The notes below the pieces were generated by a model. That model did not search any database. It was not told the origin of the DNA and worked only from the letters and a program-made list of their open reading frames with translations. 64,000 nt of DNA from Girardia tigrina. Its lineage: Eukaryota. The DNA is taken from the NCBI GenBank assembly GCA_001938485.1, contig MQRK01238503.1, forward strand, positions 1 through 64,000, given 5' to 3'. Position numbers and translations under genes: made by a program. This document shows, piece after piece, positions 3,800-62,750 of the stretch. The stretch's first letter is position 1; every line of letters begins with the position of its first letter.

Positions 3800-4308
3800 T
3801 GTAAGTAACGTTTATGCCCCTTTCATAATTATCAAATTTAGAACTCATAATTTAACACCGCAATCTTTATTAATATCAACAATTAACATATTTAAACAAA
3901 TTTCTTGTTAATTCCAATTTTTCGCCAAAATTAATCTATTAAATGATTTTTCGATTAAATTTTGAAAATTTGCTCAATTTTAAACTTTAAAATAATTGTT
4001 ACATTTTTTACGATACTTTATCATAAAAACTAATTAATTTAAATTTACTATAAACCTTTTATTAAAATAAATTATTTCTTAAAATATTAATCCGTTAATT
4101 ATCTATTTTAAAATTTATTTAAACTTATTTCATAACTTTTATTAAAATATATCAATTGTTATGACTGCACGCATATTTTAAAAAAGTATTTATTTTTTAT
4201 GATATTTTTACTTTACATTTTAATTTTTTAATTTACTTTTTTTATATTTTCAAATAAAAATATAATAAACTATTTTTGCGAAATGTAAAGTTAACCTAAC
4301 CCCTCATA
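3800..4308 (-). mobile_element. Solo LTR of a Ty3/Gypsy element (TA...CA termini)
   Basis: 5-bp TSD AGTTT at 3795-3799 and 4309-4313; homologous to the LTR at 11017-11746 that follows an integrase end and PPT. Confidence 0.85.
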
Positions 4309-5290: not shown

Positions 5291-5462
5291 TATTCAACCA
5301 GTCAGATTGCAGTATTGACGAATCTTTGAAAAACTAATTATTTCAAATTTTTGATAAAAACAGAATAGACAAAAAGTGGTTGTAGCAAAGCAAATGCGAA
5401 TGAAACTTTATTGTATTAACAACATCAATATGATTTTTCGAACATTTAGGAATATCACTAAT

Positions 5463-6400
5463 TGGACAGGAAACCGTGTCTCCACGATTTTTTAGGAAGA
5501 GAGGTGGACAGAGAACGGTAATAAGCGCCTTTCATTTTATGAATTTCCTCTAGCGTCTCATCATCAATCTCCAAAGTCGTCACTGTTTCCTCTACATCAC
5601 TCAAAGTCATATTTAAATGTGAATCAAAAGCATTTAATTTGCCTCGTAATTCTCTATCGTTTTTTATTTTACGTAAATTCGCTCATTTAAGCTCAATCGA
5701 ATCAGATCGAGTGGTTCATCGATTACGGAAATGTCAGAATTTAAAACGTTGCCAGAAATCGGATCCATTTAAATTTCGTTTATCAATTTATATTCTTTAT
5801 TCAAAACTCAAAAAAAAGAACGATTTGCCACTGAAAAATTCAAAACACTTTTATTTTTTAACGACACCTTTTTTGTAACTTTTTTAATAATTGTGATTGC
5901 AAATCACAATTAAAATTAGCACACACACTTTAACACACACATTCACCAATCATTTTAACATACACACACTATACATATCACATATAACTTACCACACGAC
6001 ACACGCAATCATACATAAAGAAAGAAATTACCAGTGATTCATTGGTATGGAAAAATTCATTGTGCTAAGAAATGAGGATCACCATTTAATTAACTCACAT
6101 TACATAATCAATAGAGACATTATTTCACAAATTCCATTATCATTATTGATTTGTTTTAATTTCAAGTATTTCAAACCGATTTATTTATTTTATTAGTTTA
6201 TTTAATTTTGCTTACGTTATTTGAAAATTAATTCCCTTTTTGCATGGTTAATTATGCTAGTGAATATAATTTAATAACATTTTTTTTATTTAACGTTTTG
6301 TCTTTCCTATTTTCACTTTATTTTTATTTAATCCATTATATTTTTTTATTTATAAATTTCTGGCAAAAATGTTCGGTCAAATTGGCAATTATCCGCTCCA
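5463..6400 (-). mobile_element. Cargo-carrying TGGA...TCCA element, copy A (938 bp)
   Basis: TSD CTAAT at 5458-5462 and 6401-6405; first 40 nt are 36/40 and last 35 nt are 32/35 identical to the ends of 52254-53348; shared CA-rich arm. Confidence 0.9.
5536..5768 (-). pseudogene. LSM3: Intronless, 3'-truncated LSm3 (U6 snRNP Sm-like protein) fragment inside element copy A
   Basis: [34 protein letters not shown] / [44 protein letters not shown]; one A missing in a homopolymer near 5667-5670; Sm2 C-terminus absent; missed by the ORF track. Confidence 0.92.
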
Positions 6401-6797
6401 CTAATAGAATTGTCATTGCAACAATTATTCAAACTACTCTCACGATTCGACATTTTTCTTGATTAATATATTTCTGACATACTAATTCTTTTGAAAACAA
6501 ATGAAAATATTATTATAATATTAATTAATTATCAAAATCTTATTGGTTAAAATTAGATCTATATATTTTTTCAATTCCATTAAAATTTTATATTACAATA
6601 AAATAGTAAATATTATATTAAAAAATTACATTTGAAAAATATTTTAAAAATTTTTACTTTAAATTTAAATTAAATTATATTCAATTAGTAATAGTCAAAA
6701 AAATACCAATCAATCATCTGGGTAGGAGAGACACAATCCGAATGAACATGCAACATGCAAAATATAAAACAACAAACAATTCAGAACATTCCTCACA
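6401..6797 (-). repeat. TGTGAGGAA-family repeat, copy 2 (continues left of 5463, interrupted by copy A)
   Basis: CATCTGGGTAGGAGAGACACA...TTCCTCACA end; the short MSN-type ORF starting at 6453 resumes in frame on the far side of the insert. Confidence 0.75.
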
Positions 6798-9140
6798 TAT
6801 TTAAAATAATATTTCAAAATCATTTTTCGAAAAATATGATAAGATGATCAGATAACTAATTATATTGTAAATACAAAAACTTGTAAATCATAAAAAAATT
6901 ATATCCATTCTTTTTTCTGGCAGAACCCTATTTGTTATCTTTTGTAGAAGGGCAAATTACTATAACATTTATTAATATTAATTATTACTTTTTTATTTTT
7001 CTGTGTAATATAAACTACTTATAATTTTTAAGTGATCATTTTTTACTAATATTTTTCAGGAACATCGAATTTTTCGTTTTTTTCAATTTTGGGACCCTAA
7101 AAAGTTTTTTTGATCAAATTTTCACATTATCCTTTATTGCAATCGAAAATGAGTAAGTGTGTAAAGTTTGAAGAAAATTTGAGTAAAAAGCCTTCAAAAA
7201 TAGGTATCTAAATTCCATGGATACAAAAATTTGTTTCAGTTTATAAAGAATAAAAAATTACTTTTCTAAATAACAGATTTAAGTTTGAAAAGGAAAGAAT
7301 TTATATATTTTGTCTTCTTATATTGATAGAACGAGGAATTTTGTGTATCAGACGACTTTGTAATCAAAATTTTTGTGTTTGTCTGAATCATCTATCGCAC
7401 ACAGAAATATAAAGTAGCAAGCGTTGGACTAAATAACATGACTAAACAACACAGGAAGCTCATAAAAATCTAGCTTATCTATCTCTCTCGAATGGTGTAC
7501 CTATTTCTTTGACAAAAACCCTGGTATTTTCGCTTCTAATAAAAAAACTGAGTTGTTTAAATAAATTAAAATTAAAATTATTAAACGTGGGAAATTCAAA
7601 TGTGGTGAAAATGTCGATGAAAATAAATTCTTCCGATTTCTTACTTTTTTAATTTTTATAAATTGTAATCGAATGAAATCGAGCGGACCAGAGCTACCAC
7701 CGCATTGTTCAGCAAATGGGCATTCGGACAACCCACTTGGACGCGTCGAGTGGACCACCGACCAATGCGACGCCGCCGACAGGACCTACACATTTTGGCG
7801 AGCCGCTGTGGGTCGTTTGCGGCGCCGACGCGCGCCTGCGTATTGACCGTTGGTCACTGGAACCGACCGATCATGTCCGCCAGTGACAATTTCCCGCACA
7901 ATTAAGAGGTGCTGGTTGCCGCCACTCGGTTCGGCAGTCAGTACCAAAAATAAAAACGAGTAAAGTAAATACAAAATAACACAATTATTTGAAATTTAGT
8001 TTCAAAAAGGTTAATTTATAGTTGGTTTAAAAAAACCTTTCAAAATAAAATTTTAAGCGGTAAAGATTAAAGGAAATAACAAAATATATTTAAAAAGAAA
8101 AAATTTCAGTTAATTAAAATCATTTTTCAAAGTAGAAAATCAAATAATAATTTTTAAATTGTTTATGGTTTTGATTTCGATTAAATTCAAAATGGAAAAA
8201 ATAATTATCGTTTAATTCTTTTTCTCTATGTTTTTCAGATACACATAGACTGTAATGAAAAACGGATGAGACCCAGTGATTAATTTATGGGAGATTGGGT
8301 ATCCATGATATAAACGTGCGATTAATTAAGTCTAATGTACCTTGACAAATGAATCTAGTCTGCCATCCACTTAAGCGTATGGTCTAACAATTGCTGATTC
8401 TTTCCTCCAACCGAAGATGACACGCACTAACTCATTATTTCAAAGAAATTCCATTGAGAAAATTTTATACAATTATTTCTCGGAAAACTCTAAATTAACA
8501 GAATTTGTACATAAGTTACGTGTTTTTGTTGCTCTTCAATATCAGAAATGAGAACACATAAATGACTGGCAAATGATTGACTGAAATCGTTTTTTTTTCT
8601 GTATTCAAAAATATTTTAAATTTTTATTTAATTGGATAATTTGATTTGATTTTGTAAATTAATTACATATACTTTAATTTACGAATTATTATTTTTGGGG
8701 TTTCTTTTAAAATATTATAATAAAAATATTATAATTAATAAATAATAAAATACATTAATTTTTTGAAAACACAAAACATGCTTTTCATAATTTATGGTTA
8801 TTAATTTCGATGGATCGACCGTTATCATCAGACTAAAGTTTACATTAACATTTCTTTGGTTTATAAACCAATCGCATTTATAAACCTAAGAAATGTGTAT
8901 GTGATCATTATGTATTTTTTATCAATAAAATACTTTTTAAAAAGTTGAAGACGATGCTGTTTGCAAATTGATTTTATAATCAAAATAGAAAAAGACCAGT
9001 CATGTATGACGGAAGAGCTGAATTTTCTTCTTTGAAAGTTTATGTTTTAATTTTAAAATCATAATTATGATTTCTATTTAAATTCTAAAATATTTGAATT
9101 TGTGTTTCACTCACAATTTTGAATAATTCATATAAATCAT

Positions 9141-10789: not shown

Positions 10790-11746
10790 GATGCATTAAT
10801 ATAATGACCGGATAATATAATACAATTAGAAGAAATTTCGAAACAGAAGATGAAGTACTAGTCAAGGTGGAAACGGGGATAAAGTAAAGATAAATATGAA
10901 GGACCGTATAAAGTCATAGAGAAAACACATGACAGAAGATATAAACTAATAAATGAAGATGGAAGAATTTTAGATCGAAACTTGCAAAATTTGAGAAAAT
11001 TCTTAAAGAAAGGGGATATGAGGGTTAGTTTAAATTTGCATTTCGCAAAAATAGTTTATTATTTTTTAATTTGCAAATTTAAAAAAAGAAAATTAAACTG
11101 TAAAGTAAAGATATCACAAAAAATAAATACTTATTTAAAATATGCTTGCAGTAATAACAATTGATATATTTTAATAAAAGTTATGAAATAAGTTTAAATA
11201 AATTTTAAAATAGATAACTAACGGATTGATATTTTAGGAAATAATTTTTTAATAAAAGGCTTATAGTAAATTTGAATTGATAAGTTTTATGATAAAATTT
11301 TGTAAAAATGTAAAAATTATTTTAAAATTTAAAATTTAGCAAATGTTCAAAATTTAATCGAAAAAATTTAATAGAATAATTTTGGGTGAGATAATTGAAT
11401 TAACAAGAAATTTGTTTAAATATGTGAATTGTTGATATTAATCCCAATGGGACCGAAACTATTTCCTTTAGAAAAAATGAATTTTTGATATTAATTCTGG
11501 TTTATTATATCTAATGGTTTATTATATCCAATATCTGTATCTGATGAGTTCAAACTCATGACTCATATATACAAAGATTATTGCACCTAATGCCGCCTGT
11601 TGCTGAGTCGTCAAATTGATGTAAAAAATATTTGAGCAGTGTTCTTTTAAAAGGACGGTGGCCCCATTCGGGTTAATAAAGATTGTGCAGTTAAATTATG
11701 AATTCTGAATTTGATAATAATGAAAGTGACATAAATGCTACTTACA
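10790..11746 (+). mobile_element. Ty3/Gypsy 3' end: integrase C-terminus, PPT and 3' LTR
   Basis: KYEGPYKVIEKTHDRRYKLINEDGRILDRN; PPT AAAGAAAGGGGA at 11005-11016; LTR 11017-11746 (TATGAGGG...ACTTACA). Confidence 0.85.
11442..11672. mobile_element. piggyBac-like MITE inserted in the LTR
   Basis: TTAA at 11438-11441 and 11673-11676; ends TCCCAATGGG / CCCATTCGGG; the homologous solo LTR has a single TTAA (empty site). Confidence 0.85.
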
Positions 11747-11952
11747 TCTTTTATTTATAACCAATCTGACATAGTGTTTATGAGGTAACTTGGAGCAATA
11801 TTTGAATGATGTAGAGTGGTGGTTGAATGATTTTTAAATTATATTCGAGATTGGTTGGTTTTTGAAGCATGATCTGTCTCCCTAGACAATTGAAGTCAAT
11901 TATTGAAGAATTTAAAAATGTCTACAAATTGTGTAATAAATTATTTGTTATT

Positions 11953-12445
11953 TGTGAGGAATGTTTTGAATTGTGTGTTGATATTGTGCATGTAGAATGT
12001 TGATTCGGATTGTGCCTCTCCTACACAGATGGATGATTGATATTTTCTTTGATTCTTACTAATTAAAAATAATTTAATTTAATTTTAAAGTAAAAAGATT
12101 TAAAATAATTTTTGAATGTATTATTTATTTTTTTAAAGTAATTTAATTTTAACCAATTAGATTCTTTATAATTTAATAATTTTTATTAACAGATTTTCAT
12201 TTATTGAAAATAATTAGTTTGAACTCAGAAAAAAATGATCAAGAGAGATGTCAAATAGTGAATGCGCTTGTAATATTAATAAATGTTGTAAACCTCATAT
12301 TGATGTTGTTAATATTATTGAACAATTAACAAAAAATACCATTGTTTTAATCATTGTAAATTTTAGGAAATGTTTTGTAAATTCAACAGAAGTCATGGCG
12401 CTGATTACCGATCATTTTACTGTCATTGAATGCTACTTGGGGTAA
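11953..12445 (+). repeat. TGTGAGGAA-family repeat, copy 3, with short ORF 12248-12445
   Basis: TGTGAGGAATGTTTT...CTCCTACACAGATGG; ORF begins MSNSECACNINKCCKPHIDVVN. Confidence 0.7.
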
Positions 12446-14779: not shown

Positions 14780-15280
14780 ATTTCTTAATTTAGTTTTCCT
14801 TCTATGTTATACTTTGTATTTTTCGTCGTAAATGGTTTCGTAGTATTAAGAACACCAATTTGACTTTTTATATTTTTATTTAAACAACAATTTTGATTGT
14901 CCTTAAGACAGTCTTTGTCAAAACTTTCGTACATTTGCATTCAAAGCGAAATTGATTAATGAATTAATTCTTATTATTTTTTAGCAAATGGGGAAATAAA
15001 TATTTTAATAAAATATTCACTCAAAACTTATTGGATAATAATTAAAATGATAATTAATTATTTAAAAATTATTAATTTGATTTATTTATTAAATATTATA
15101 AAAATTAATTAACTTATTTAAAATTTTAAAATTATTTGAAATTAAAAATAAATTTAAACATTACATTTTTAGATAATAAGAATTAAAATATTAATCATCC
15201 ATCTGGGTAGGAGAGACACATTTCCAAATCAACATACACATTCAAACACAAAACATCAAACATCCAAAATATTCCTCACA
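14780..15280 (-). repeat. TGTGAGGAA-family repeat, copy 4
   Basis: CCATCTGGGTAGGAGAGACACA...TTCCTCACA ending at 15280; degenerate ORF start MQMYESFDKDCLKDN...IGVLN. Confidence 0.7.
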
Positions 15281-39643: not shown

Positions 39644-42600
39644 TCATATAAAAAAGTTAAAAACCTTGCCTTTACTTTCCATGGTGTTCGCAAATGATTT
39701 TGGTGTATACAGACAACAATTTTTATTTTTCTTGAATTTAACTGAATTTAATTTATTTAATTTTTGAATAATTATTTGGTCAATGAATTGGTCAATGATT
39801 GTCATTATATATTTTTGTCTTCCAAATGATGTATTAAAAGGTTCACAAAAATCAATATGAATTTTTTCAAATAATGAAGTTGGTTTACTTTTAACTACTT
39901 TTTCTTTCGTTTTAATCGTCAACACTTTTCTCTTCTGGCAATTTTCACAACTCTGCACAATTTCTTTAATTTTTTCTTTTCTATTTGTCATATCGAATTT
40001 TCGAGATATGTATTCGTGAACTTTCTTAACTCCCGCGTGGCATAGCAGCTCGTGAATATGGGTTATAATTTGTCTTGTATTTTCTTCAGGAATCCAAATT
40101 TTATCTTTTTGTGTATAAACAATGTTGTTCAATATTTTCCACTTTGTTTCCTTATTATTTTCAATCTCGTTCTTTATATCGCTTATTTCTATTGACATTG
40201 AGCGTAAGTTATACAATCTGTTCTTGATAGTGCATCGGCATTAGAGTGTTCTTCCCCTTTTCTATACTCCATCTGGATATCTAAGCTACTCAAATGATTA
40301 ATCCATGTCTGAAATTGAGGAGTTATGGGTTTCTTTGTTTTCAGCATAAACGTTATGGCTTTGTGATCAGTACGGAGTTTGAAGCGTTTTCCGTACAAAT
40401 AGTGCTTAAAATGTTAGGTAAAATAAAATATAGCTAATAATTCTTTTCTTGTTATGTAATAACCAAGCTCATGCTTATTCATGGCTCGTGATCCATAAGC
40501 TATTGGCTTTTCTCGTCCATTTTCGTCCAATTGTGATAAAACCGCTCTGATTCGGTCAAAACTTGCATCAGTATCCAAGATAAATTCATTTGAAAAATCT
40601 GGAAATGCTAAAACTGGAGCTTTTGTAAGTTCTTTTTTCAAATTTTGAAACGCCTCCTCGCAGTCGTTTGTCCAACAAATTTTATTTTGTGTGCTGCCGC
40701 ATACCGATTCTAGAACTTTCGAATATTTCGTATAATCCTTTATAAATCTTCGATAGTAATTGGTGAGTCCATGGAAACTTCTTAGTTTTTTTAACACATT
40801 TGGGACTTTCGAATTTTTCAATAGCTTCAATTTTTGATTTCTCAGTTTGAATTCCATTTGTATTAATTTGATGACCTAAAAATCTAATTTCTTCTTTCAA
40901 AAAGTGACATTTACTAAGGTTTATTTTCATACCAGCTTCCTTTATCTTTTTAAAAACATTTTCAATTCTTTTATAGTGTTCTTTCAATGAGTTGGAGAAT
41001 ATCAGCATATCATCTAAATAAAACACAGCTTCTTTCCAATTGAGTGGTCCTAGAACTTTATTCATTAATTTTTGAAATGTGACGGGTGCAGCAGCTATAC
41101 CGAACGGCATTTGATTAAAACAATATTGGGAAGATTTAGTTGAAAAAGCTGTTTTTAACTTCGAATCATCACTGAGCTCCACTTGGTAAAATGCGTTACC
41201 AAGATCAATAGTACTAAAATACTTTCCTCCATATAAAATATCCATCATTTCTGTAGTATTAGGAATAGGAAAAATTGGTCGTTCAGTGACTCCATTTAAA
41301 GCTCTATAATACAAACAAATTCTTATATCTTCACTATCTCTTTTCTTTACACACACTAATGGCGAATTCCAAGGTGATTCACATTTACTTATAATACCAT
41401 TGTCTTCCATTTCTTTAATGCTTTTATCAATTCTTTCGATTAAATGATATGGTCGACGCCGAGGATTCATTACGATTGGTTTGCTATTAGTCACTATCTC
41501 ATGTTTTAATAAATTAGTTTTCCCGATATCCCATTTGTGTTTCATTATAATATTTTCATATGTTTTTAATATTNNNNNNNNNNNNNNNNNNNNNNNNNNN
41601 NNNNNNNNNNNNNNNNNNNNNNNNNNNNNNNNNNNNNNNNNNNNNNNNNNNNNNNNNNNNNNNNNNNNNNNNNNNNNNNNNNNNNNNNNNNNNNNNNNNN
41701 NNNNNNNNNNNNNNNNNNNNNNNNNNNNNNNNNNATGCTATATAAAATTCTATTTTTTTCTTAATATTATTTAATTCGACATCCAAATAAACTCTTCCTA
41801 CTATTTCTAAATTACTATCGTTAGCGCATCTTACTTTGGCAAATGATTTATTACACTCAAACTTCCCTATTTTGTTTAACAATTCTTCTTTAATAACACT
41901 TATTCTTGCTCCTGTATCAAGTAGGTACTTATTGTGGATTCCATTGACTTTAATATTGACAATTGGTCTGCCATCGAATTTATCATAATCAATTATTTCA
42001 TTTTTATTATTGAGTCTATTAATNNNNNNNNNNNNNNNNNNNNNNNNNNNNNNNNNNNNNNNNNNNNNNNNNNNNNNNNNNNNNNNNNNNNNNNNNNNNN
42101 NNNNNNNNNNNNNNNNNNNNNNNNTCATCATACAATTTGCAAACATACGTATTATCATTAGATAAATCATTTTCATGAAAATTATCAATATTTAAATTTT
42201 TATAATTATTATTCGAATTATACACGTGAGAATTACTATCAGAAATATTGGTAATTAACACATCATACTTTTTCTCATCATACAAATCATCATCATACAA
42301 TTTATCAGTCATATCGGCTTTATTCAATATACAACTTACATGATTCAGTGAATCGCCCCGATAACCTCCTCTCGTGGCAGGGCTTTGGCATTTGGGTGTT
42401 TGTCAACCATCTCGGACGAGTCCAGCTCCGAATCTTCGTATTCCACTTGATCATCGAATGCAGCGACTTTATATCTCTGGTATGAATCCTTCCTCCTAGA
42501 CTCGTAGCATTGGTGACGAAAATGTCCGGGCTTCTTGCAATGAGAACATTGAACGTGTGGGCATTGACTTCGAACATGGCCTTTTTCTCTACATGCCCAG

Positions 42601-43370
42601 CATGTTTTTATTCGATGGGACAATTCTCTTCCATGATATGCTTCTTTATTACTATAATTTTGACCCCTTCTGTTAAAATATTGTGTTTGTTTCAGCTTTT
42701 GTGTTTCTCTTCTTTCGCCATTATAGTATATATTTTCCTTGAATCTGATTGGTTGATTATTATATCTTTGATTTGTTTGGACGGCTCTTGCGTAACTTGG
42801 TTTATCCGTTTTTAAAACGGCAACGTTATTTTCTGCTTGTAGTTCCTTTTTTATTAATTCCATTTTTGTTATAATTTGCTTTATTTCTTCATTGCTGGTT
42901 GCGCTTCTCATTTTTATTTCTTTTTTAATGTCCATATCATCTATGGAGTTTTGCAACAGAAATGTGACAAGCGTTTCTTTCGTCAACGTATGACGCAATA
43001 TGTTGTCGGCTAAAATATCAATTTTTTTAAAAAATTGTGCTACCGTTTCTTCTCCTTTTCGATATTTCAAAGCAGCATATAAATCTTTACTGATGTCTGC
43101 TGGTTCTTGAAAAGCTTTTCTAAATCTTTCTTTATAATCTTCAACGGAATCTTCGATTGCTTCATATAGTTTAGCTGCATCAGCTGATAAAAATGCCCTG
43201 ATGAATGTTTTCTGCAGTGGGCCTTGAATTCCAGTCAATTCGTATAATCGTTGAATTTCTTCTAAAAATTCTTCTATATTATCTCCGACATTGAATATTT
43301 TGGGAGTGGGGACAAAAGAATTTAAGTGTCCTGGCGTGGTCGCCATGTTAGAAGACTTCAAGACTGTCAT
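39644..43370 (-). mobile_element. Ty3/Gypsy retrotransposon internal region (gag-PR-RT-RH-partial IN), decayed
   Basis: gag with two CCHC knuckles; LLDTGA protease; YLDD RT; DTDAS RNase H; H-H-C-C integrase zinc finger; frameshifts and stops in pol. Confidence 0.95.
42345..43370 (-). CDS. gag: Gypsy Gag, open 341-aa ORF
   Basis: CWACREKGHVRSQC and CSHCKKPGHFRHQC knuckles. Confidence 0.85.
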   Translation of the reverse strand: MTVLKSSNMATTPGHLNSFVPTPKIFNVGDNIEEFLEEIQRLYELTGIQGPLQKTFIRAFLSADAAKLYEAIEDSVEDYKERFRKAFQEPADISKDLYAALKYRKGEETVAQFFKKIDILADNILRHTLTKETLVTFLLQNSIDDMDIKKEIKMRSATSNEEIKQIITKMELIKKELQAENNVAVLKTDKPSYARAVQTNQRYNNQPIRFKENIYYNGERRETQKLKQTQYFNRRGQNYSNKEAYHGRELSHRIKTCWACREKGHVRSQCPHVQCSHCKKPGHFRHQCYESRRKDSYQRYKVAAFDDQVEYEDSELDSSEMVDKHPNAKALPREEVIGAIH

Positions 43371-43609
43371 AATATTTATTTAAAAGACAATAAGATGAGG
43401 AATATCATCTGTATATATATTGATTAATGCCGTCATCAATCTGGGTCAAACATATACTCATTCATTTCACCATACACACAATTTCGGTCGTGACCTCTTA
43501 CACAACAATACAAAGATCACACCTCAAACATTCCATACATAAATTACGCAGCATACGTTTATTAGTTTCGATAATAATTCTCATCACAGTACAACTTGTC
43601 ATAGCGGGG

Positions 43610-45665: not shown

Positions 45666-47374
45666 CTTTTTGGAAACAAAAATTAATTCTTTTTATTATT
45701 TATTGGTTGGGGTACTGTTCCATTCTTAGCCCCAACAAGAAAAATATTTTTTCAAATTTATTTCTTTGCCAGTATTTTTAAAATGATTTATCTTTAATTT
45801 TCATTAAAATAAATTTTATTGAAAAACATTTTTTTTAAAATATTTTTATCCTAAAAAATAATGTTATGATCAGAGTAATACGTGGTGTGCCGATAGAGTA
45901 AGTTTCATCTGAATCCCATAGAGCTAATGTTGTGTTACACACAGACGACTAAGAAACGCGACTTATTGACGCTTTGATATATTTTTATTTTGTGAAAACT
46001 TTCAAAAAAATTATTCTAATTCATTATAATGACCGAAAATCAAAATTTGTAAATAATAATTCTTTTATTTATTAAAATTATTTTAAAACAATATTTTGAT
46101 GATGTGTTCCGATTACGCATACATAGAACTTAATAGATACAACAAGAATTATTACACTTTTAGTTGAAAATATTTGTTCGGTTTCGTTTTTGAATAAAAT
46201 TTTCGATAAAATATTTTTTCTTTAAATGTTAGTTATAAAAGTAAGAAAAAATTTTATTAACGTCAAAGTAAAAAAAATTAACGATATATATANNNNNNNN
46301 NNNNNNNNNNNNNNNNNNNNNNNNNNNNNNNNNNNNNNNNNNNNNNNNNNNNNNNNNNNNNNNNNNNNNNNNNNNNNNNNNNNNNNNNNNNNNNNATATA
46401 TATATATATATATATATATATTCGTTAAAAGTTATGTTTTTGTTTTAACGAAAAACGGTAACTCCGTAATTGGGTGTTGTAATGTTATAATAATAAATTC
46501 TGCTATCAAAGAAATATTGATTTATTATCAAGAAAATTATTCATGACATTTGACTATATTTTTAATGCGGATTATCTTGTAAAGACATTTGAAGATAATC
46601 TTGTAATAATTCCCAATCAGAGATTGCATATCAAAATTTGTGAAGACATTCATGATAAATCGTATGAATTAATGAGAATATTTCAAAGTTGTAGAAACAG
46701 TATGGAAACGATGTTTTGGAAAATAATCACCAACAAACACGGTGTCAAACCGACCACTGGTGTTCACGAAAGCGACAGTGATTTGCAATTACAGAGAATT
46801 GACGTTTACTTTACTTGGTTGAATTGAATAGTGCCACTCTCGATTACGCTCTGAATTCGAATCTTGGTGAATTGTTTCAACCAGATTATTTCATCTGTGG
46901 TTCCTCAAGTGATTCCAACAAGTGCGAAAGAAAGACCAAGTATTCAGATATTCCCAAGTCGGTCGGCGCTTTCGGACGATTAATGAACGTATGTCCTTGT
47001 GTAATTATTATATTTATTTATATAAAAATGAATAATAATAATAATAATAAAAATAATAAAAATATTAACAAAAATAAAAACAATAAAGATAGAAATTTTA
47101 GCAAAAATATAGATGATAATAATAATAATAATAAATTAGACAACGATGCAATCGAACTCACTCATCTCCCTTGATGACCCGCTGGGGGTCAAGATATGAT
47201 AAGTGCTTCCACTGCGCTGCTGCCACAACAATATTTTTAGAAAACTTAGAATATGATTTATGTAATTTTAATTATTGTATTTTTAGTTTTTTTGATTTCA
47301 GTTAATTAAAAATCTGATTGTTAAAATTTTTTAAAAACAAAAAGCTTATTTGTATCTAAAGGTAAAATTATAAT

Positions 47375-47965
47375 TGTGAGGAATATTTTAAATTTGGTAT
47401 GTTGAAATTGGTTTGTTGAATTTTCTATGTTGTGTTTAGTATTTGGAAATGTGTTTCTCCCACCCAGATGGAAAATTGATATTTTGGGTGTTCACGATAA
47501 TTAATTATTCGAGTATAATTTGAATTTTAAAGTACAGCATAAGATATTTAAAAAACTTTAAAAATATTAAATCGTTTCAAATTTTAATATTAAAAATTTA
47601 AATAAAGTAAATAACTTTTAACTAAGTTTTAAATTAAATAAATGTTCTTTCTTTACATAAAATCATTTTTTAAATAAAATTAATATGTAAATAAAATAAA
47701 TAATAAAATTACAAAATTTGAACTTTATAAATAAAATCTGAAAATAATGAAAATTTGTTCGAATAATTGTTTATTAACAAACATTAATAAAAAATTATCA
47801 ATTTAGAACGATGTCGAATGACGAGAGTTTTGCTGAGAATTGTCCAAAAGACAATTCTGACTGTATTGAAAATAAAAGTTCGGAAACCCATGTTGGTGTT
47901 CTTAATAATAATGAAATAGAAAAATCCGAAAATTTTCAAAAAATTAAAATAATAATAAATTAAAC
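47375..47965 (+). repeat. TGTGAGGAA-family repeat, copy 5, with short ORF at 47811
   Basis: Aligns to 155-447 (reverse complement); ORF MSNDESFAENCPKDNSDCIENKSSETHVGVLN. Confidence 0.75.
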
Positions 47966-51377: not shown

Positions 51378-52253
51378 TTTTTCTTTTAACTTTACTCTAA
51401 TTATTTAATAATATTTTTTTACTTTACTTTAATCACTTTGGAATTATTTATTTAATTATTAATTTGATTTTACTTTTAATTATTTTTTAATTAATTATTT
51501 TATTTAATTTATTTATTTAATTCACTTTAAATTTATCATTTTTATTTATTCTTTTACTTATTTAATTTAATTTTACTTAATTTTATTTATTTAATGTTTT
51601 AATTTAAATTGGGCTCAAGTAAGGGTCAAAAATAATCGCAACGCGATCAATTATTAATTAACTAATTTATTCGAAACACATATTCCTCTAAAAAAACTTA
51701 CTCAGGAATGCCTAAATTAGTTGGACAAAAATTCTTTTTGATAAATTAAATAGAAGTGCCAATTAAATCCATAAATCTTAAATTATCATTCAATCAGAAA
51801 AACGAAAATGCATTTTTTTAAATAACAAATAAAGAAAAAAGGCTCATTCAAAATGCGGAAGAGTACCTGACGAACGAAAGAGCAGCGAAGAATTCGATTT
51901 TCACACAAATCACCTTTTTGATTTCTGACACCTGAGAACCGTGATCGAGCAAACTACACCGTAGTTGCATCACATCGAAACACATATTAATATCAGAATC
52001 GATTAAATTGTTTAAAATTGTGAATTTAAAATCGAATTTTGGTGATTTCTTTTTCGCTTAAATTAATATTGAAAAAAAAGAAAATTTTAATTTGCTAGTT
52101 TTTTTGAAAAAAATAATTGATAAAGAAATTTAGATAACTAAAAGATATTTGATTTTAAATTTTAACGTCCAAGTTAATCAGATATCAAAAGTAGCTTCAT
52201 ATTATTATTGTAGTAGTTCTAGTTAAAATGACTAAAAAATTTATCTTTATTAG

Positions 52254-53348
52254 TGGACAGGAAGCCGTGTCTCCGCGATATTTTAGAAAGAGAAGAATTG
52301 TTTCTCATTGTGCACGTCGGTTGAAAAGTGCTTTTCATTTTATTGAACAAAATATTCAGCGGAATCCCATCTCGTTTACGCAATTAAAATATGGCGATAT
52401 CCCAACCGAGAAAATGATGACATGCATCTTTATCATAGATCAACCGCACAATAAACGGGTGATTAATCGCCACCAAAATGTTGCGCTCCATTTGTGTTCG
52501 CAATCGATCCCTCAATTTTAATGAAGCTTTCCGCAACACTTTAATCGCATAAAGATTTCCGGAATGAATACCTTTGGTTTTTCGAACTAAATAAACCTGG
52601 CCGAATGATCCTTGACCTAAAATTCTCAATAACTGAAATTGTGACGGATCAACTTTTTCATTTTGATTCACTAATTCCGTCACATTGACCTCAGTAATCA
52701 ACTCATGATTGTCAAAATTAAAAACAAAATCCATTTAAATCGACANTGTTTCAAGTTTTCAAAAACTTATTTTTTAAATTGAATTAAGAGAACTCCTTTT
52801 TTTATTTAAAAGAAATTGGAAATTGAAATTGACAAATTCTCTTTTTTTAACGTTTTTTAACATTGAATTTAAAAATTGATTTAAATTTCACCGTTTTTGA
52901 AAATTGATTTAAAAAAATTGTGATCATTATTCACAAATAAATTTAACACATACACAACATACACACCTTCAGCCAATCCCAATCATTTACATTTCATTAA
53001 ACACAAACATACACACAAAACACGCAATCACATTCACACAAACAAAGACATACTTACATGCAAAGATTCATTTAATTACATAAATTAACAATGAGGCTCA
53101 CCACTTAGTTATACAATTATTTCCTCGAATTAATAGATCGATGAATATCGAATCGGAATCGGTGTCTGTTTTCTGTCGACAATTCACTCATTTCTTTTTT
53201 AATATATTTCATTTTAATTTAATTTGTTTTTTATTTATTTTACTTTTAACTTAATTAATTATTTAATTTATTAGGTTAATTATATTTTTTATTTATATTT
53301 TCCGGAAACTAGCAAAATGTTCGGTCAAATCAGCAATTCTCCGCTCCA
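52254..53348 (-). mobile_element. Cargo-carrying TGGA...TCCA element, copy B (1095 bp)
   Basis: TSD ATTAG at 52249-52253 and 53349-53353; termini and arms homologous to 5463-6400. Confidence 0.9.
52434..52734 (-). pseudogene. Intronless fragment of the p90 ribosomal S6 kinase (RSK) N-terminal kinase N-lobe inside element copy B
   Basis: [27 protein letters not shown]...[40 protein letters not shown], then unrelated sequence. Confidence 0.93.
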
Positions 53349-53749
53349 ATTAGTATTTTTGTTTATCTTGTAAATTTTGACATAGTAAAGGATTTGTTAA
53401 AATCATGTTCAAATCAATTTATATTCATAAGTTACTCAATGTACTCAATGAACTTAAGATTTTAACATCAGTAAAAAGATAGGAAATTTCCATTATAAAA
53501 TATATTTTAAAATATCACTCTAATTAATGAATATTTAAACAATTATGCTTCTTTGCTAACTACCACAAATCAGAACATACAGCTGGTGTGTAGTTTGAAA
53601 TTGACATTTAATTAAAATATTTGATACAACTAATATGGCATCTAAGTAAAGTTATTAATTTCATTATAGAATCCTTTGACATGAAACTTTTAAATCCAAC
53701 TTGTCTAAACAATTTGATGTAGAATTCAAAGCAGCAAACAATTAGATTT

Positions 53750-61850: not shown

Positions 61851-62394
61851 GATTTTATGTAATAATGTAGAATTATCTAGATCTCGAGAATTCTTTGTGA
61901 AAGGTGCTGTGTTAGATGAAAATATGCAGAAGTTATTAATATCCGATGATTTATTTTTATTTATTGGGGATAAACTGAAAATGGCAGAGAAAGATTTATT
62001 AATTTGTAATTCTTTAGTTACTGCACATGAAGGATTTATATGGGTTCGAATATATATATATATATATATNNNNNNNNNNNNNNNNNNNNNNNNNNNNNNN
62101 NNNNNNNNNNNNNNNNNNNNNNNNNNNNNNNNNNNNNNNNNNNNNAATAAAAGAACTCTTATTTTATTTTATAAAAATATATTTATGTATTTACAATTAA
62201 TTACAAATTCAAATGAAAGATTAGTGTTTTATTTGGCCCCTGGCCGATTTTATATTAAACTCCGGAGCCTTTGCGACAACTCGGGTTGATTGAAGTTTTT
62301 GTAAGTTTTTCTGTCACACTTTACAGCGTGTTTCTTTTTTTATATAAAGATATGAGAATTTTAAATAACTACACTTTATATACTAATTATTACT

Positions 62395-62750
62395 TTTGTT
62401 TCCTTTTATCTTTTAGACACTATTTCAGTGTTATTTAACCTCTATGTTATCTTTTGTTGCCTTTATCTTTTAGACACTATTCCAGTGTGATTTAACCTCT
62501 GTGTTATCTTTTAGACACATATCCAGTGTGATTTAACTTCTGTGTTATCTTTTGTTGCCTTTATCTTTTAGACACTATTCCAGTGTGATTTAACCTCTGT
62601 GTGTTTTTCATCATTTTACTCTATCTTTATATATGCGTACCGTTGATTGGAATTCTTTTGATCCGATCAATCGGTATTTAACGAACTATAAACAAGATGG
62701 TTGAACTATAATAGTATTTAACGAACTATAAACAGGATGGTTGAACTATA
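62395..62750. repeat. Tandem repeats: ~55-bp unit about 3.5 times, then ~40-bp unit twice
   Basis: TTTTAGACACTATTCCAGTGTGATTTAACCTCTGTG units; GTATTTAACGAACTATAAACARGATGGTTGAACTATA twice. Confidence 0.8.

Follow-up and report, generated by a model that had tools for sequence, protein, structure and literature searches.

Unrelated intron-less host gene fragments in a common slot of a short, putatively LTR-like unit of Girardia tigrina

The stretch of 64,000 nucleotides from the Girardia tigrina contig MQRK01238503.1 that we have analysed, to which we refer as the window, carries on its minus strand an intron-less fragment of LSm3 that breaks off where an exon of the gene would be expected to end and then reads into the sequence of a mobile element. 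The question that this locus raises is how a piece of a host gene has come to lie inside such a unit: through splicing and reverse transcription, as the initial annotation had proposed, through a switch of template during reverse transcription, or through capture at the level of DNA.

The surroundings of the fragment are AT-rich, with a GC content of 0.22–0.37 in 31 of the 32 two-kb bins of the window; Schmidtea is described as more than 70% A/T (PMC11410931, in excerpt). The window contains mariner, pogo-type, LINE and Gypsy remains, and no intact host gene is recognisable among the frames scanned. The Pfam scan covered 150 of 160 selected frames (232 before the low-complexity filter), with two more scanned separately and eight left out; the 150 frames gave transposon domains and two marginal matches only. 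Rfam gave no matches in the window, and none of the 447 pattern matches in bacterial and archaeal genomes was confirmed. Tblastn with two LSm3 and two RSK proteins matches the cargoes that are described below and no parent gene in the window.

Several side features are also present: a Gypsy-like gag-pol remnant (39644-43379, minus strand), for which no LTR pair and no link to the ends of the units described below were found; an inverted pair (11017-11442 / 3800-4308, 88% identical) that starts just past a purine tract at ~11006-11016, has an extra stretch of ~230 bp in the copy near 11.4 kb and is probably the LTR of another family; a tandem array (62349-62602) with spacing that alternates between 41 and 57 nt; and a GC-rich island of ~260 bp (7680-7940), which stands out from its AT-rich neighbourhood and matches nothing in Pfam or Rfam.

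Two element copies and their target sites

The LSm3 fragment is part of one of two element copies, A and B, which are delimited by the following features:

5463..6400, minus strand: element copy A, 938 bp, with TGGA...TCCA ends, lacking an internal direct repeat and a poly(A) tail
5458..5462: target-site duplication (TSD) of A, CTAAT, containing the stop codon TAG (5460-5458)
6401..6405: second copy of the TSD of A, CTAAT
5769..6400, minus strand: 5' region of A, with a conserved 34-nt end, an AT-rich spacer and a TG-rich block (~5860-6020)
5414..6820: older dispersed repeat that is interrupted by A, with uninterrupted paralogues at 47583-47907, 14843-15280 and 11928-12364
52254..53348, minus strand: element copy B, 1095 bp, with the same TGGA...TCCA ends as A
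52249-52253 and 53349-53353: TSD of B, ATTAG

Both copies are flanked by a perfect 5-bp TSD that differs between them, where a chance 5-mer match at two random positions of the window has a probability of 0.0025. The terminal bases of A and B are identical at 31 of 34 positions (5' end) and 36 of 40 positions (3' end), and the insert of A is missing in three paralogues of the surrounding repeat, which run uninterrupted through the site and thus represent empty sites. This repeat is a five-copy non-coding family (122-456, 5414-6820, 11928-12364, 14843-15280 and 47366-47907), 63–86% identical, with a conserved core, CATCTGGGT. The TSDs of A and B are mutual reverse complements, hinting at a target preference.

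A and B are significantly alike at their two ends, within the TG-rich block and near the ATG; their likeness is not significant in the 80–130 nt that precede the ATG (p~0.08), in the AT spacer (p~0.27) and in the cargo. The TG-rich block of A is a putative promoter or leader. This block has donor-like GTAAGT/GTATGT sites in both copies, and A, unlike B, also has an acceptor-like TTTTTCAG; these motifs were noted, on the minus strand, at 5992 and 5831 in A and at 53057 and 53012 in B, and, judging by them, an unspliced leader intron is possible. At the other end, an AATAAA is located in the tail of B (52344-52339), with CATAAA at the matching place in A, and AATAAA is common in both AT-rich copies, A having 10 and B 5; no RNA structure was found in the tails of A and B (z -0.14 and -0.69). 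The tail of A has CTGTCCA twice, internally and at its end (5463-5511, minus strand), as an imperfect copy of the terminus that is absent from B.

No terminal direct repeat is present in A or B, whose opening and closing 200 nt share direct matches of 10–12 nt at best; the inverted repeat of the termini is exact over 4 bp only, with terminal complementarity of 8/12 and 7/12, and no PBS, PPT or LTR pair was found in either copy. Scans of the window with the ends (up to 8 mismatches per 24 nt) and tblastn with the related proteins P0142 and P0145, which are introduced below, gave A and B and no further copy, apart from three chance matches at 8 mismatches. As the window holds no parent gene, cargo-less copy, or full-length or autonomous element, no donor or acceptor of the element itself is demonstrated in it.

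The slot between head and tail and its cargoes

Within each copy, a cargo is enclosed between a head and a tail:

5736..5768, minus strand: head of A, apparently element-derived, an ATG and about 11 codons ending VLNS (MDPISGNVLNS)
5536..5735, minus strand: LSm3 cargo of A, 200 nt, intron-less, without the C-terminal quarter of LSm3
5667..5670, minus strand: homopolymer run (four T on the plus strand) that is one base short, causing a frameshift
5536..5631, minus strand: last block of the LSm3 cargo, AFD...EEIHK, 96 nt, between two presumed intron positions
5463..5535, minus strand: shortened tail of A (MKG...RHGFLS), without the first 95 nt of the tail of B
52714..52734, minus strand: head of B, apparently element-derived, MDFVFNF
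52434..52713, minus strand: RSK (p90 S6 kinase) N-lobe cargo of B, 280 nt, intron-less, in frame
52254..52433, minus strand: full tail of B, 180 nt, with one in-frame stop (52384-52386)

The cargo of A is identified as LSm3 by a Pfam LSM match (E=1e-9) and by its best PDB match, LSm3 3jcr_3 (E=4.5e-17), whose alignment stops one residue past the K of EEIHK. Our analysis agrees with the initial annotation that this cargo is intron-less, with GKLN|AFD unbroken (continuous at 5632|5631), that it ends at EEIHK and then runs into the element up to a stop codon inside the TSD, and that it contains a one-nucleotide homopolymer frameshift near 5668, which corresponds to a change of frame in the four-T run: the frame from the minus-strand ATG at 5768 reads MDPISG...ERIYVK followed by a stop, and the next frame reads ...GKLNAFD...EEIHKMKG...RHGFLSN followed by a stop. 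Gaps of N in the window lie next to (TA)n tracts, and an isolated N also occurs, a pattern that suggests a short-read assembly and hence that the indel at 5667-5670 is real.

A search for LSm3 homologues gave 12 matches, i.e. 11 named flatworm proteins and an unnamed one; in A, 8 of 47 invariant columns are altered, the break included. The H in EEIHK was considered as proof of an element-derived base and is uninformative, since seven other invariant columns differ too. The last ~25 residues of LSm3 are missing from A and from the rest of the window. The LSm3 copy in A is a dead fragment, with LSM homology, a frameshift and no Sm2 part.

The cargo of B has its best PDB match in RPS6KA (E=4e-31), with the homology stopping at Y100; its frame is unbroken over 116 amino acids, 8 of 44 invariant RSK columns are altered, and the best full-length RSK match is a flatworm protein. 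The N-lobe fusion ends at the stop, with an AATAAA ~40 nt further on; from its open frame, B could be an expressed mini-gene.

The two heads are alike beyond the start codon: A and B share ATTTAAATGGAT, followed by 14 of 16 identical in-frame nucleotides (VLNSD vs VFNFD; p=0.003, with none as good in 4108 control windows), and the common DNA extends 4 nt past the head of A, to 5732. The protein P0145, found via the tail alone, starts with MSLVLNS, and neither M..V.N nor an early VLNS occurs in any of 113 named, Met-starting LSm3 and RSK control proteins. The start codon and the first codons of A thus appear, from this comparison, to belong to the element and not to LSm3, so that the LSm3 cargo would begin at about 5735 rather than 5768; within the span of 5458..5768 given at first, the first ~11 codons would thus not be LSm3.

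A search with the 60 codons that follow the RSK piece of B returned five proteins, two of which are members of the family: P0142, where the tail is 77% identical over all 60 query residues (E=2.4e-23) behind a stretch of 47 residues, and P0145, where it is 67% identical behind an ankyrin repeat cargo; the other three (P0143, P0144 and P0146) were rejected as repeat-rich chance matches. The cargo of P0142 has no match in Pfam, PDB or Atlas, the cargoes of P0142 and P0145 are unlike those of A and B in any frame (one of 24 frame tests below p<0.05, at p=0.037), and they show no likeness to each other. Four unrelated cargoes therefore occupy the same slot before one tail, two of them known at the protein level only. 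P0142 and P0145 are single unnamed protein predictions from contigs of 983 and 1634 nt, which may be transcripts or come from another species; they were found through the tail, hence their frame is selected, and A and B are the unbiased copies.

All four members read through RHGFLS and then diverge, as is expected of independent insertions; the codon of the next residue could, in all four, begin with the element's last A. The tail match of B and P0142 begins at the same point (D/N-K-D-A-C), and since the 95 nt that follow the RSK piece are also present in P0142, they are element tail, missing in A. The same stretch was considered as a second cargo or a skipped RSK exon, and this was rejected: it is unlike the named RSK and LSm3 proteins, besides being shared with P0142. 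This entry point is common to two of the four members, B and P0142; A joins the tail 95 nt lower, and the tail similarity of P0145 starts ~16 codons lower. In A and B, the cargo is in frame with both head and tail, save for the frameshift of A and the tail stop of B; as a rough estimate from two copies, this has a probability of ~1–2% by chance, which hints at selection for translation.

Exon boundaries and the filling of the slot

The introns of vertebrate LSM3, which we take to lie at RLH|AYD and EIYK|STK, would have their counterparts in breaks of flatworm proteins: of the 11 named LSm3 proteins from flatworms, 3 diverge from the others precisely at LH|AFD or EEVYK|. In P0004 and P0007, EEVYK is followed by an unrelated tail that starts with V, and in P0013 an insert that starts with V is located between LH and AFD; these are likely to be mis-annotated trematode gene models that read into phase-0 GT donors (V). 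The two intron positions proposed for LSm3 by the initial annotation thus gain support, of an indirect kind, in flatworms. The 5' break of A lies 2–3 codons inside the exon start that is suggested by the trematode proteins P0011 and P0012.

The cargo of B spans from a vertebrate exon start to a phase-1 boundary after LIY. Among 111 named RSK proteins, two depart from the consensus immediately past HY: the first skips to DFGLSK, and the second reads GEL. Either deviation fits a phase-1 donor, so that the 3' break of B (TAT G|ATAAAG) would correspond to an RSK exon end, and the sequence past it is neither GT nor the next RSK exon. At the 5' side, the isoforms of vertebrate RSK differ upstream of the position that lies 34 residues ahead of GSFG; this position corresponds to D8 of B (no gaps) or N9 (with a one-residue gap). 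The alignment of a trematode RSK begins exactly at 52713, immediately past the head. This intron evidence is from vertebrates only: none of five flatworm RSKs among the matches listed deviates at HY, the boundaries at GSFG and LK show no informative deviations among the named proteins, and a human RSK2 boundary after HY was not found in the literature searched. The human RSK2 acceptor at c.326-1 (PMC10073030, in excerpt) falls within the uninterrupted cargo of B. That B ends at an RSK exon end favours splicing at the level of the family.

The 3' junction of A is less direct. The cargo meets the tail 95 nt below the entry point of B and P0142, at a micro-repeat of 6–7 nt, and the motif at the junction, TTCA(A)TAAA, is also present in B; both 3' entry points start with ATAAA. 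If the LSm3 exon end were spliced to the usual entry point, an ATAAAAT would be placed 95 nt upstream of a second ATAAAAT; a slip between these repeats and a direct switch from LSm3 mRNA give the same letters, so that A alone cannot decide between them. Capture by splicing and reverse transcription, as first proposed for this locus, is thus supported in part: the RSK exon end of B favours it, and for the junction of A the accompanying caveat of a template switch stands.

We favour, with a probability of about one in two, the reading that A and B are copies of an LTR-like unit whose slot is filled through splicing and reverse transcription. The unit would be non-autonomous and inserted by an integrase, a solo LTR being the simplest case, with the slot between a fixed head (5' region, ATG and ~7 codons) and a fixed tail (~180 nt to the TCCA end). 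A master copy would have a splice donor following its head and a splice acceptor preceding its tail, and host exons would be joined to it where element copies sit in the introns of host genes; alternatively, host pre-mRNA or DNA might first be caught imprecisely and then trimmed by splicing. A helper LTR retrotransposon would reverse-transcribe the spliced product, which would then insert and generate a 5-bp TSD. For A, it is probable that splicing had joined the LSm3 exon to the common entry point before the first 95 nt of the tail were lost between the ATAAAAT repeats. A broader form of this reading, which we advance tentatively and regard as somewhat doubtful, is a natural exon-trap family in free-living flatworms, in which a unit of ~1 kb with its own promoter, start, donor and acceptor would repeatedly take up internal host exons that are kept in frame.

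Template switching at fixed sites, the main rival, which we hold to be rather unlikely, would have the reverse transcriptase jump, at favoured sites of the element with few shared bases, between the RNA of the element and a mature mRNA packaged along with it; an mRNA donor would explain the lack of introns, the agreement with exon ends would reflect bias or chance, and no splice sites of the element would be needed. It would account for the microhomology of A with the tail, for the ATAAA of both entry points and for the border of head and cargo, which is blurred by the four shared bases in A and B. Its closest precedent is found in the LTR-mediated retrocopies of the Gypsy element BLASTOPIA in Drosophila (Tan et al. 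2016, PMC5131818, in excerpt), where microsimilarity is reported at 25 of 29 junctions and where the switch of five BLASTOPIA retrocopies always falls on a single site of the element, close to an exon-exon junction. As in A and B, partial, intron-less host fragments without poly(A) from several parent genes lie in a retroelement-like unit of one family, with one recurring element site beside an exon junction. However, the model of that source gives two LTRs around a cargo that replaces internal ORFs, and its supplementary diagrams draw the constant part, of 276+1775 nt, at the 5' flank; A and B are units of ~1 kb with no LTR pair or terminal direct repeat, in which the sequences on either side of the slot recur and the ATG apparently comes from the element. 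The 3' break of B on a presumed donor, adjoining neither GT nor the next RSK exon, and its 5' break at an exon start also speak against switching. In its working, the unit would resemble LTR-mediated retroposition, but it lacks the two LTRs of that class and the TIRs of Pack elements, and as an LTR it is putative.

Quite improbable, in our judgement, is a Ginger-like or unclassified DNA transposon whose TIRs are very short and which takes up genomic fragments by gap repair, as Pack-TIR elements do; the cargoes would then be intron-less because the parent genes of this lineage had lost their introns or because the element had taken up retrocopies that already existed. A single unit with two conserved ends and a variable middle has the usual look of a non-autonomous element, the termini of Ginger are TG...CA (PMC6839031, in excerpt), and the missing PBS, PPT and LTR pair would find an explanation. 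Pack-TIR, Pack-MULE and GingerRoot elements are likewise non-autonomous units of ~1 kb with conserved ends and gene-fragment cargoes of 200–300 nt, but, in the excerpts of PMC8277862 and PMC6839031, they have real TIRs and capture their cargo at the DNA level, and GingerRoot retains the introns of its cargo and makes a TSD of 6 bp, as against 5 in A and B; the complementarity of the termini of A and B is short, and the exon-end breaks of both cargoes would be left unexplained.

Very improbable is a poly(A)-trap capture, in which each cargo would be the beginning of a host mRNA that brings its native 5' UTR and start codon and is spliced or switched onto the tail only, since, although the N-terminus of A is about as long as those of trematode LSm3, three trematode RSKs begin just 3–4 residues before D8 of B and the stretch before the ATG is not significantly alike, the likeness of the heads would have to be chance in AT-rich start contexts, against which stand the in-frame match after the ATG and the start of P0145 described above.

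Known systems and the meaning of the slot

The features that A and B have in common with solo LTRs are the TG...CA termini (TGGA...TCCA) and the directly flanking TSD of 5 bp. TRIM elements have short terminal direct repeats with a PBS and PPT, which A and B lack, and processed pseudogenes of the LINE type have a complete 3' end and a poly(A), in contrast to the 3'-truncated cargoes of A and B that end in element sequence. In retroviral oncogene capture, element and host exons are spliced together and then fixed by reverse transcription, much as would be the case here; in the classical case, splicing makes the 5' junction and microhomology the 3' one, whereas in the family of A and B it is the 3' junction that best matches a host donor.

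Precedents for LTR-like units that supply a start and splice to host exons are the ERVL/MaLR solo LTRs, which donate a promoter, an AUG and a splice donor and, according to the excerpt of PMC5538554, carry no splice acceptor, and, among flatworms, the ta-TRIM solo LTRs of cestodes (PMC4558846, in excerpt); in both, as excerpted, the fusions are transcripts of a locus, and the mobile unit itself does not incorporate host exons. The planarian Burro/GYPSM1 elements, here set beside A and B by description only, also carry host-like domains, ankyrin repeats among them, but are giant Gypsy elements of more than 30 kb with these domains within the polyprotein (PMC6431247, in excerpt). No prior description of the anatomy of A and B in flatworms was found in the literature searched, which was mostly open-access, with Repbase outside its scope.

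The capture of host mRNA by retroelements is already known and has been described as microhomology switching within a two-LTR element. If the reading that we favour is true, a short, single unit that has a start of its own and a slot for repeated use, with cargoes that break at exon boundaries, would be a direct route to exon shuffling. It is the slot at the level of the family, and not the LSm3 copy itself, that is the finding worth following: a genome-wide set of junctions could separate splicing from template switching, a question that the BLASTOPIA pattern leaves open. In flatworm annotations, copies like A and B would probably pass for lineage-specific genes or pseudogenes, and they could conceivably yield piRNAs or RNAi off-targets against essential genes. 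Should the exon-trap form of the reading be true, the genome would be seeded with expressed chimeric mini-genes or with small-RNA decoys of essential genes.
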